64,000 bases of DNA from Escherichia coli (GTDB taxonomy: Bacteria; Pseudomonadota; Gammaproteobacteria; Enterobacterales; Enterobacteriaceae), in NCBI RefSeq assembly GCF_050320075.1, contig NZ_CP190018.1. One strand, given 5' to 3'. How positions within the stretch are numbered: the first letter of the stretch is position 1; the number at the start of each line of letters is the position of its first letter. Made by a program: the position numbers and the translations under genes. The notes beneath the pieces were generated by a model. That model was not told where the DNA came from and did not search any database. It saw only the letters and a list, made by a program, of their open reading frames with translations. Below, piece after piece: positions 49,437-49,768 of the stretch.

Positions 49437-49507
49437 TTGTGATTTTGACATTGGTCTATGCGCTCCATTCACGAAAATTGCGCGGATATTTATTTTGTGA
49501 AGGCTAT

Positions 49508-49526
49508 TATCCTACATCTGTAAGAA
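49508..49526 (+). promoter_or_regulatory. EvgA box upstream of ydeP
   Basis: TATCCTACA-TC-TGTAAGAA matches the EvgA inverted-repeat consensus TTCPyTACA-N2-TGTPuGAA; ydeP is a known direct EvgA target. Confidence 0.7.
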
Positions 49527-49768
49527 AATCCGCGCACAATTGAAGCCAGAGTCTTATTTTTTATATTGAAAAATATGTTAATTTAAACACTATGAGAGAT
49601 GATGCTTAATTTATCGTATTTAATCTTTTGTTTAACGATAATAGATTAAAATAGAAAGAGAGTAGTCCCCTACTCTTATATATCCATGTTGACGATAATC
49701 CCTTTGTATATACTGTGCATCATCGCTATTACAAATCCTAATAATTCATTTCCACACAGGATAAGCAG

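Follow-up and report, generated by a model that had tools for sequence, protein, structure and literature searches.

A conserved promoter-side block beyond the EvgA box of ydeP and safA-ydeO in Escherichia coli

Inducible acid resistance of Escherichia coli is switched on by the EvgS/EvgA cascade, and safA is its link to PhoQ/PhoP. Reporters of ydeP and safA are widely used as EvgS read-outs. Duplicated promoters of acid resistance genes are found at gadA and gadBC, which share a GAD box together with its flanks. Like these, ydeP and safA belong to one stress regulon and have two promoters that share more than the minimal site of a regulator; however, at gadA and gadBC whole genes are paralogous, whereas ydeP (an oxidoreductase) and safA (a 65-aa membrane connector) are unrelated genes, and copying could have involved no more than a promoter cassette. 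The site of EvgA is an inverted repeat, TTCYTACA-N2-TGTARGAA, reportedly described by Masuda & Church in 2003 and by Itou et al. in 2009.

EvgA activates both ydeP and safA-ydeO (PMC7174508, PMC5706723, PMC11210196 and a 2026 preprint), and evgAS together with safA-ydeO was reported to be specific for E. coli (PMC5706723). EvgS/EvgA is homologous to BvgS/BvgA (PMC8174306). At the promoter Pfha, BvgA is bound as head-to-head dimers every 22 bp on one face of the DNA, with the strongest site located furthest upstream, secondary sites that are barely recognisable in the sequence, and a last dimer that abuts the -35 region (PMC7250471).

The window, that is the whole 64-kb stretch of DNA analysed here, is E. 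coli chromosome with the gene order ydeQ, ydeP, safA, ydeO and matches, at 100% identity, chromosomes of E. coli that are annotated in this way. The ydeQ-ydeP-safA-ydeO region was found in 5389 out of 5426 complete genomes. The closest YdeP outside E. coli is that of Edwardsiella (84–85% amino acid identity), which has no EvgA box upstream. Both elements compared in the following are the already known EvgA-activated promoters of this acid resistance cluster, and their EvgA sites were known before. As they carry the same 18-bp box upstream of known direct EvgA targets, their relation to the other promoters with an EvgA box is one of membership and not of mere resemblance. The difference to the known box is that the conserved unit is longer here, comprising the box, 33 nt on its promoter side and an extended -10 element at a fixed distance.

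Layout of the two promoters

The EvgA box was searched as the 18-bp consensus TTCYTACANNTGTARGAA. Within the 64-kb window only two matches with at most three mismatches exist, and these lie upstream of the annotated ydeP and safA-ydeO (Table 1), just as the original prediction had it when assigning a match to the inverted repeat to each of the two elements. Being located upstream of, and oriented to, EvgA-dependent genes, both elements are, judged by their boxes, EvgA-box promoters. In K-12 the box of safA-ydeO reads TGCCTACAGCTGTAAGAA; at ydeP, variation among the listed E. coli variants is limited to the first half-site and the NN spacer of the box. The related blocks originally proposed at 49512-49560 and 52171-52221 are both present, the first one with CTACATCTG starting at 49512. 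The coordinates of the second one had to be corrected by 1–2 nt, since its first position is 52170 and the last one of its TATTTCC is 52219.

Table 1. Position of promoter elements and genes at the ydeP-safA-ydeO locus, in coordinates of the window
Feature	Position	Strand	Sequence	Remarks
Left arm of imperfect inverted repeat	49476..49487		AATTGCGCGGAT	
EvgA box, ydeP	49509..49526		ATCCTACATCTGTAAGAA	1 mismatch to consensus
Conserved 33-nt block after box, ydeP	49527..49559	+	AATCCGCGCACAATTGAAGCCAGAGTCTTATTT	about -64 to -32
Right arm of imperfect inverted repeat	49528..49541		ATCCGCGCACAATT	offsets 2-15 of the conserved block
Variable spacer between block and -10, ydeP	49560..49575	+		5/16 identical to safA (chance level); 7/16 columns polymorphic
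Extended -10, ydeP	49576..49584	+		TG 49576-49577, TAATTT 49579-49584
Inferred transcription start, ydeP	49591..49591	+		+/- 1 nt; 178-nt leader, ATG at 49769
ydeP coding sequence	49769..52048	+		759 aa; open reading frame, RefSeq annotation of 100%-identical matches
Hairpin directly 3' of ydeP stop	52062..52092	+		12-bp perfect stem, 7-nt loop; likely ydeP terminator
EvgA box, safA-ydeO	52167..52184		CGCCTACAGCTGTAAGAA	2 mismatches to consensus
Conserved 33-nt block after box, safA	52185..52217	+	ACTCCGCTCAGTACTGAAGCGCCAGTCCTATTT	
Variable spacer, safA	52218..52233	+		11/16 columns polymorphic, with a 1-nt difference in length among variants
Extended -10, safA	52234..52242	+	TGTTATATT	same offset as in ydeP
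safA and ydeO	52296..53329	+		safA 52296-52493, ydeO 52568-53329; open reading frames, annotation

Common to both promoters is a succession of the 18-bp EvgA box, a 33-nt block, a 16-nt spacer and an extended -10 element (TGTTAATTT at ydeP and TGTTATATT at safA). The distance from the box to the -10 element is identical to the nucleotide, the extended -10 being found 50–58 nt after the box in both cases. For ydeP a leader of 178 nt was used in PMC11210196, and this length places the TG at exactly -15/-14 and TAATTT at -12 to -7. The start of ydeP would then lie about 65 nt after the box, which puts the box at about -82 to -65, with its centre near -73.5, and the block at about -64 to -32. By analogy, the start of safA is predicted near 52249 with a 5' UTR of about 47 nt. 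The extended -10 of ydeP is nearly invariant among the listed E. coli variants, one of which reads TAACTT, and that of safA is invariant in 18 variants; in the divergent locus L005 these elements are TGCTAATTT and TGCTATATT, respectively. The safA block holds a 10-bp palindrome, TCAGTACTGA, at 52192-52201, and the centre of this palindrome is 21 bp away from the centre of the box. The hairpin behind ydeP sets the upstream limit of the regulatory region of safA.

A consensus scan for σ70 promoters in the ydeP region picks TTGAAG-16-TATATT (49540-49567), which would place the box near -57. We did not accept this as the main promoter of ydeP, because safA has no conserved counterpart (TATTCT, TTTTCT or TTTTAT among variants) and because the offset of the extended -10 is identical in both promoters and fits the published leader.

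The 33-nt block and its occurrence in the EvgA regulon

Aligned locally, the two intergenic regions match best without gaps, 49511-49567 being paired with 52169-52225; 44 out of 57 positions are identical, and the score is 49. Dinucleotide shuffling (2000 shuffles) gave scores of 19.1 +/- 2.4 and never more than 34, hence never the observed value. The pair is recovered by MAFFT and by Smith-Waterman alignment; it is not among the 20 largest direct-repeat families in a repeat search of 49300-52600, and the safA copy is missed by a 'distant'-mode BLAST of the ydeP spacer, as the match is too short for the size of the database. When the sequences are anchored at the box, 24 out of 33 nt are identical on its 3' side (P about 1e-7 in a binomial model with a background of 0.28), followed by 5 out of 16 in the spacer and 14 out of 21 around the extended -10. 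The 5' flanks are unrelated, with z = -0.5 in local alignment. A pairwise alignment had been proposed as a check on whether the similarity would be limited to the 18-bp box; it goes beyond the box on the 3' side and does not do so on the 5' side. With the box excluded and a free register, the local alignment of the downstream regions reaches only z = 2.3, so the claim of a similar flank depends on the box-anchored comparison. We dismissed a possible second block of similarity, TTGAC(C)ATTG, located about 63–66 nt upstream of the boxes, since the flanks there align no better than shuffled sequences. The general low complexity of intergenic DNA is the only point in favour of a chance resemblance between two A+T-rich intergenic regions which each hold an EvgA box; such a coincidence is refuted by the shuffles and by the anchored comparison, and we give it practically no credence.

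A scan of metagenome contigs with TGTAAGAAANTYCGCNCA yielded at least 39 module-like matches, all of them of the ydeP or the safA type, and the other 93 matches listed are unrelated (at most 51% identity). Copies beyond these two types, as in a dispersed repeat (REP, MITE or IS remnant), were not found among the metagenome matches listed. According to BLAST, the median number of places with the ydeP spacer in an E. coli genome is one.

As a measure of constraint we used the share of polymorphic columns among the listed E. coli variants and the divergent locus. This share is 55–57% in the 5' flank, 11–22% in the box, 22–30% in the block, 44–69% in the spacer and 24% from the extended -10 to the start. 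By this measure the 33-nt block is constrained in E. coli, and the likeness of ydeP and safA outside the box is restricted to the promoter-proximal side and to positions conserved in the population. Parallel changes in both promoters of the divergent locus (C instead of T at the TGn position, T instead of C at offset +20) were considered as possible gene conversion; this was rejected as, by a rough estimate, they are indistinguishable from chance.

Six promoters, ydeP, safA, emrK, frc, yfdX and yegR, which form four independent groups only, were compared for the presence of the block. The hdeD-gadE region of K-12 has no EvgA box at up to three mismatches and gadE could therefore not be used as a seventh promoter. 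A weaker version of the block is partly present, in register after the box, at emrK, frc, yfdX and yegR. Between independent groups, 182 out of 429 comparisons (42%) match at offsets 1-33, compared to 117–118 +/- 10–11 in a null model of shifted registers, and none of 5000 such nulls reached this value. The pattern holds with one promoter per group (83 and 86 out of 198 versus about 54–55 +/- 6.6), and it is absent from the gene-distal side of the same boxes (106 out of 429, P = 0.85). The columns without any difference among the six promoters are those of CA (+9/+10), TC (+26/+27) and T (+31). Neither the second, distal box of yfdX nor the evgA-facing side of the emrK box is followed by the block. 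The strings TCCGC, TGAAGC and AGTC are specific to the pair of ydeP and safA and missing from the other promoters. Since the block is conserved in register among emrK, frc/yfdX and yegR, functional constraint accounts for much of the similarity. Partly shared at four further promoters and on their promoter side only, the element is best read as a working part of the EvgA-dependent promoter, beyond a relic of duplication alone.

The inverted repeat at the ydeP box

The ydeP copy had also been described as embedded in a larger imperfect inverted repeat at about 49476-49542 that could form a cruciform or RNA structure. The repeat itself is present, with a gapless core of 12 nt (49479-49490 and 49525-49536) which has one mismatch and includes a G+C-rich perfect stem of 9 bp. 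However, this is within chance expectation, because dinucleotide shuffles of the 332-nt spacer contain a perfect stem of at least 9 bp in 11% of cases, and at least 12 nt with no more than one mismatch in 8%. The proposed structure is not supported. Folding z-scores are only -2.4 for DNA and -2.7 for RNA, and a search of 49300-52700 against Rfam gave no match at E <= 1. The left arm is kept in the divergent locus, but the length of the loop is not; it grows from 39 nt in E. coli to 51 nt, hence by 12 nt, in L005. The block common to ydeP and safA already accounts for the conservation of the right arm; safA has TCCGCTCA at this position and no matching left arm. Compensatory changes in the arms were not found. 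The only two changes seen are single-sided C to T transitions, one in an E. coli variant and one in the right arm of the divergent locus; both keep G-U pairing in a plus-strand RNA, yet chance alone would give two transitions compatible with wobble pairing in one case out of four. As the repeat is located upstream of the inferred ydeP start and lacks a U-tract, it is not a typical terminator. A cruciform or RNA hairpin with a regulatory role at this place appears very improbable to us.

Origin and possible function of the extended unit

Going by the column frequencies at the other four promoters, one would expect 15.3 identical positions in the blocks of ydeP and safA; the 24 observed exceed this number (P about 1e-3). 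Ranked by block identity, the neighbouring pairs are first and second out of 15 pairs, ydeP/safA with a distance of 2.66 kb and yfdX/frc with one of 0.99 kb; the 14 pairs other than ydeP/safA have 9–19 identical positions out of 33, with 19 in yfdX/frc and 9–17 in the pairs which are not neighbours. The promoters of yfdX and frc, in the yfdXWUVE cluster, are thus a second case in which EvgA-box promoters about 1 kb apart have the most similar blocks, ydeP/safA excepted. They differ in that their excess is weaker and, taken alone, not significant (P = 0.18), and in the extra distal box of yfdX. The position of ydeP/safA above the shared pattern, together with the second rank of yfdX/frc, makes a local duplication of the ydeP and safA promoters plausible but, judged from such comparisons, unproven. 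Unconstrained positions, i.e. the 16-nt spacer and the 5' flanks, carry no signature of duplication; this is compatible with an old event, because such positions would have diverged. Of the duplicated regulatory module in the original prediction, the likeness beyond the box and the greatest similarity among adjacent promoters are retained, but the excess is one-sided, lies in conserved positions and affects a block common to other EvgA-box promoters.

If the two promoters had no common ancestor, the binding of EvgA and RNA polymerase in one geometry would have to impose their likeness. The conservation of the block in register and on the promoter side only, across independent EvgA-box promoters, agrees with such a pure functional convergence, and so does the missing likeness of ydeP and safA in the unconstrained spacer and 5' flank. 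It does not agree well with a block identity above the regulon-wide prediction, with the finding that the closest relative of each of these promoters is, both times, its neighbour, or with pair-specific strings and an exactly equal distance from box to -10; we consider convergence alone rather doubtful, though it is the most credible of the alternatives. The opposite view, according to which a segment of about 50 bp was copied, only its box is functional and the similar flank is a residue of ancestry, explains why the likeness reaches beyond the box and why the copies are only 2.66 kb apart within an E. coli-specific regulon. But a neutral remnant would decay equally on both sides of the box, whereas the likeness is strictly one-sided and resides in positions conserved in E. 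coli and in the divergent locus, next to neighbours which diverged freely, and the positions with the likeness also show partial conservation at emrK, frc, yfdX and yegR. We regard such a simple relic as improbable.

Hardly less improbable is that the pair-specific likeness represents the site of a second regulator acting on these two promoters only, for instance for repression by YdeO or PhoP. The EvgA consensus does not explain the pair-specific TCCGC.CA and TGAAG, repression of safA-ydeO by PhoP and a feedback by YdeO have been reported as well as an indirect repression of ydeP by YdeO, and the safA block of the divergent locus contains a perfect YdeO-type hexamer, ATTTCA (hexamer from PMC4222967). 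On the other hand, the seven target operons obtained for YdeO by ChIP-chip include neither ydeP nor safA, and no PhoP box was recognisable by eye.

The explanation we prefer, and consider fairly probable, is that of two known EvgA promoters with a collinear layout and a functional block, whose extra likeness comes from local copying. The 33-nt block would have a part in activation: from the strong repeat upstream, phosphorylated EvgA bound there may recruit more EvgA subunits on the same side of the helix down to the -35 region, where they could contact RNA polymerase at a promoter which has an extended -10 and no usable -35 element. The excess of ydeP and safA over the pattern of the regulon would most likely go back to one promoter cassette that was copied to the neighbouring gene in the lineage of E. 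coli. The model for such an arrangement are the Bordetella promoters Pfha and Pptx, where a homologous regulator uses a strong inverted repeat far upstream, as EvgA may do here. With the inferred start, the gap from the box to about -32 would be filled exactly by the conserved block, in which half-site-like sequences recur and mismatches between the copies are about 10 bp apart. Sequences similar to the left half-site are found 20 and 42 nt after the start of the box in all six promoters, with 4–5 out of 8 matches each and z about 3; these recurrences are weak, stem from a scan of many offsets and would fail a full correction for multiple testing. Mismatches between ydeP and safA cluster at -9, +2, +11 to +14 and +21 to +23, with a peak of periodicity at 9.5–10.5 bp (P = 0.006 to 0.1). 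Unlike with BvgA, the spacing is 20–21 bp instead of 22 bp and only elements similar to the left half recur, so that the comparison serves as a working analogy drawn from the sequence. More tentatively, EvgA promoters may possibly be built as cassettes about 85 bp long, with EvgA covering some five helical turns between about -82 and about -32, like BvgA at Pfha, in front of an extended -10 without a -35; within the E. coli-specific regulon these cassettes may have spread by short local duplications that carried a promoter, but no gene, to an unrelated neighbour (ydeP/safA and yfdX/frc).

These results do not overturn the current understanding but refine a known system. The unit that responds would be about 51 bp long, with the box and 33 nt locked in register, and is followed by an extended -10 at a fixed distance. 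This unit matters for the design of ydeP and safA reporters and for testing whether EvgA acts like BvgA. For the prediction of EvgA targets the box alone is insufficient, as the distal box of yfdX and the evgA-facing side at emrK illustrate. Should the duplication be true, ydeP and safA would provide a small and clean example of how a regulon, here one reported to be restricted to a single species, grows by the copying of a promoter cassette free of genes.

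Extent of the similarity between the ydeP and safA elements

The region 49300-52600 matches several complete E. coli chromosomes at 100% identity, and 5389 of the 5426 complete genomes of this species contain it. That ydeP and safA (b1500) have EvgA boxes upstream and depend on EvgA is established, as confirmed here through secondary citations. We therefore rate the two elements as already known and the present result as a modest refinement. When the 64-kb window was searched for TTCYTACANNTGTARGAA with up to three mismatches, two boxes only were found, one in the ydeQ-ydeP (332 nt) and one in the ydeP-safA intergenic region (247 nt). 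Judged by sequence and context, both would qualify as EvgA-box promoters.

Features of the ydeQ-ydeO region, in window coordinates
Feature	Position	Strand	Sequence or description
ydeQ	48522-49436	+	ORF; RefSeq: fimbrial protein
segment 5' of ydeP box	49465-49487		CCATTCACGAAAATTGCGCGGAT
inverted-repeat arms	49476-49487, 49528-49541
ydeP EvgA box	49509-49526		ATCCTACATCTGTAAGAA, 1 mismatch
possible secondary ydeP promoter	49540-49567		TTGAAG-16-TATATT
ydeP extended -10	49576-49584	+	TGTTAATTT; TGn + -10 hexamer
ydeP leader	49591-49768		predicted fold
mini-ORF	49592-49609		ATG AGA GAT GAT GCT TAA (MRDDA, stop)
predicted closing helix of leader	49596-49605, 49717-49726		GAGAUGAUGC, GCAUCAUCGC
predicted inner hairpins of leader	~49621-49651, ~49659-49676
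ydeP	49769-52048	+	ORF; RefSeq: acid-resistance oxidoreductase
hairpin, probable ydeP terminator	52062-52092		followed by TTCCTCATT
safA EvgA box	52167-52184		CGCCTACAGCTGTAAGAA, 2 mismatches
palindrome in safA block	52192-52201		TCAGTACTGA
safA extended -10	52234-52242	+	TGTTATATT; TGn + -10 hexamer
safA	52296-52493	+	ORF; RefSeq: two-component connector
ydeO	52568-53329	+	ORF; RefSeq: acid-stress regulator

The original prediction had described two related blocks of about 50 bp, and both are present, the second beginning at 52170 rather than 52171 (a shift of 1-2 nt). Locally, the two intergenic regions align best without gaps (49511-49567 versus 52169-52225), with 44 of 57 positions identical and a score of 49, compared to 19.1 +/- 2.4 and a maximum of 34 in 2000 dinucleotide-preserving shuffles. 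The likeness thus reaches beyond the 18-bp box; similarity confined to the box had been named as the result that would speak against relatedness. It is restricted to one side of the box. If offsets are counted from the last box base, the block at offsets 1-33 is identical at 24/33 positions (binomial P about 1e-7), the spacer at offsets 34-49 at 5/16, which is the chance level, and offsets 50-70 at 14/21, and the extended -10 elements occupy exactly the same offset, 50-58. The 110 nt 5' of the two boxes resemble each other at shuffle level (z = -0.5).

The safA block holds a perfect 10-bp palindrome with its centre exactly 21 bp from that of the EvgA box; its ydeP counterpart is CAATTG only, centred 22 bp off. 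A scan called the palindrome a minus-strand terminator-like hairpin, which we regard as incidental.

Around the ydeP box both arms of the proposed inverted repeat exist, with a gapless core of 12 nt that has one mismatch and includes a perfect stem of 9 bp. A role as cruciform or RNA structure found no support: 11% of the dinucleotide-shuffled versions of the ydeQ-ydeP intergenic region contain a perfect stem of that length, an Rfam search gave no match, and safA has the bases equivalent to the right arm and lacks the left one. The right arm coincides with offsets 2-15 of the conserved block. The folding z-values of -2.4 (DNA) and -2.7 (RNA) refer to a segment chosen after the fact, and the repeat precedes the inferred ydeP start and has no T-run behind it. 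The divergent Escherichia locus L005 keeps the left arm, with a loop 12 nt longer. There the segment of about 23 nt that includes this arm is identical at 20/23 positions amid indels and many substitutions; no counterpart was found upstream of safA.

Core promoters and the ydeP leader

From the leader length in PMC11210196, transcription of ydeP is inferred to start at 49591. Relative to this start, TG occupies -15/-14 and TAATTT -12 to -7, the canonical geometry; by analogy, the safA start would be near 52249. The boxes would then be centred at about -73.5 and the block would span about -64 to -32. At the would-be -35 position stand ATTTTT (ydeP) and ATTTCC (safA). An extended -10 without a -35 element is expected where an activator must reach the -35 region. 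A simple consensus scan flags TTGAAG-16-TATATT in the ydeP region as a possible secondary promoter, and no conserved counterpart of its TATATT was found in safA. In at least three metagenome contigs TTGAAG (49540-49545, block +14 to +19) is replaced by TTAACG, two substitutions inside an otherwise invariant ydeP block. Since both versions fit 4/6 positions of the -35 consensus, this alternative promoter stays in play.

The ydeP core (49577-49598) and the region upstream of K-12 yegR (locus L002, ~8338-8359, minus strand) have TTA(T)ATTTAAACACTA(T)GAGAG in common. This match spans the -10 and start region, includes 12 nt of exact identity and has a local alignment z of 4.7, with 0/300 shuffles as high; the yegR copy lies 4-5 nt farther from its EvgA box.

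At the inferred ydeP start, TATGAGAGATGATGCTTAA is identical across E. coli variants and L005, apart from a GCT-to-GTT change in one variant, and the remainder of the 178-nt leader varies. This mini-ORF could encode a leaderless leader peptide, or merely be one strand of a leader helix. For the leader, a closed domain containing two hairpins is predicted (MFE -37.1 kcal/mol, z = -2.85). Both strands of its closing helix are conserved in L005. When 10 leader variants of E. coli are compared, one compensatory substitution (A-U to C-G) and one change of G.U to A-U are seen in the first inner hairpin. Downstream, 14 nt past the ydeP stop, a hairpin with 12 perfectly paired bp and a loop of 7 nt probably serves as terminator of ydeP; a terminator scan did not list it, and its T-tract is weak.

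A conserved block across the EvgA regulon

We take the emrK and yegR regions of K-12 to carry EvgA-binding repeats. The K-12 frc, yfdX, emrK and yegR regions were anchored on the box and oriented towards the gene, giving four independent promoter groups (ydeP/safA, frc/yfdX, emrK, yegR). For yfdX and yfdW/frc such repeats are cited in PMC3720670. At offsets 1-33, between-group matches amount to 182/429 (42%), compared to 114-119 +/- 9-11 in register-shift and shuffle nulls, and none of 5000 trials attained this value. The signal persists when each group is represented by a single promoter (83/198 and 86/198 versus about 54-55 +/- 6.6). No signal was found on the side of these boxes that faces away from the gene (106/429, P = 0.85) nor between groups at offsets 34-49 and 50-70, and block conservation was not found at the distal yfdX box (18539-18556) or on that side of the emrK box which faces evgA. 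CA at +9/+10, TC at +26/+27 and T at +31 are invariant in 6/6 promoters. Therefore, the element of about 50 bp is a regulon-wide unit of box and block, of which ydeP and safA are the two most similar members. The frc and proximal yfdX blocks (K-12 locus L001, 17474-17506 and 18468-18500, minus strand) are identical at 19/33 positions, with CTCTCTGATT at equal offset in both.

A metagenome scan with TGTAAGAAANTYCGCNCA gave at least 132 matches; among those listed, 39 are ydeP- or safA-type modules on E. coli contigs, with 12 and 15 distinct variants, respectively, and the remaining ones are unrelated chance matches of at most 51% identity. In these variants together with L005, polymorphic columns make up 55-57% of the 5' flank, 11-22% of the box, 22-30% of the part of the block not fixed by the search pattern, 44-69% of the spacer and 24% of the stretch from extended -10 to start. 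Thus, positions shared by ydeP and safA are kept by selection, and unshared ones drift freely.

Duplication, constraint and a possible mode of EvgA action

The original prediction derived both promoters from one duplicated module. The block itself is not specific to this pair. Unconstrained positions keep no similarity, which speaks against common descent or at least does not favour it. However, regulon-wide column frequencies lead one to expect only 15.3 of the 24 identities observed (Poisson-binomial P about 1e-3), the strings TCCGC, TGAAGC and AGTC are absent from the other EvgA promoters compared, and the box-to-(-10) spacing is equal to the nucleotide. Moreover, the two adjacent promoter pairs, ydeP/safA (at a distance of 2.66 kb) and yfdX/frc (0.99 kb), come first and second among 15 pairs, the others reaching 9-17/33. 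For two pre-specified pairs the probability of this is 1/105, although the frc/yfdX excess alone is not significant (P = 0.18). A second regulator common to ydeP and safA could also yield pair-specific identity; against it, YdeO ChIP-chip found seven targets including neither promoter (PMC4222967), and according to PMC7174508 the promoter of ydeP is not subject to complex AR2 regulation.

The history of the locus also favours common descent. According to PMC5706723, evgAS and safA-ydeO occur in E. coli only. In a genome scan with YdeP, the closest homologs outside E. coli are those of Edwardsiella (E. anguillarum, L006; E. piscicida, L007; E. hoshinae, L009; 84-85% amino-acid identity), followed by Yersinia, Raoultella and Tatumella (56-67%), and no other named Escherichia species appeared, which suggests spread of ydeP by horizontal transfer. 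No EvgA box was found upstream of these Edwardsiella genes, where another ORF ends ~100-150 nt upstream; hence ydeP must have gained its promoter within the E. coli lineage. L005 has a 96% identical YdeP and both modules. Contig L004 (JARKOR010000108.1), deposited as a 'Candidatus Nanosynbacter' MAG, carries a YdeP 100% identical to that of the window and both modules in K-12-type sequence; it is almost certainly a mis-binned E. coli contig. Summarizing, common descent and constraint probably both contribute to the likeness.

In the literature searched, the register-locked 33-nt extension found regulon-wide, the identical geometry of the extended -10 elements and the greatest likeness of neighbouring promoters appear to be unstated, though primary papers may show them.

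The Bordetella proteins BvgS/BvgA are homologs of EvgS/EvgA (PMC8174306). Dimers of BvgA bind the fha promoter head-to-head every 22 bp on one DNA face, with the strong consensus site most upstream, secondary sites hard to recognise from sequence and the last dimer abutting -35 (PMC7250471). EvgA promoters may work likewise, the conserved block exactly spanning the distance from the strong box to about -32. Stretches similar to the left half-site TTCYTACA are found again 20 and 42 nt past the box start in 6/6 promoters (4-5/8 positions each versus a background of 2.6 +/- 0.6, in a scan over many offsets), and the invariant CA and TC are retained parts of them. Furthermore, ydeP/safA mismatches from -17 to +33 cluster at -9, +2, +11 to +14 and +21 to +23, with a periodicity peak at 9.5-10.5 bp (P 0.006 to 0.1 by strain pair). 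With only four independent promoter groups, these signals are suggestive of BvgA-like occupancy rather than decisive. We propose, as a tentative and rather doubtful combination, that EvgA may occupy several turns of such promoters and that the cassette spread by local duplication.
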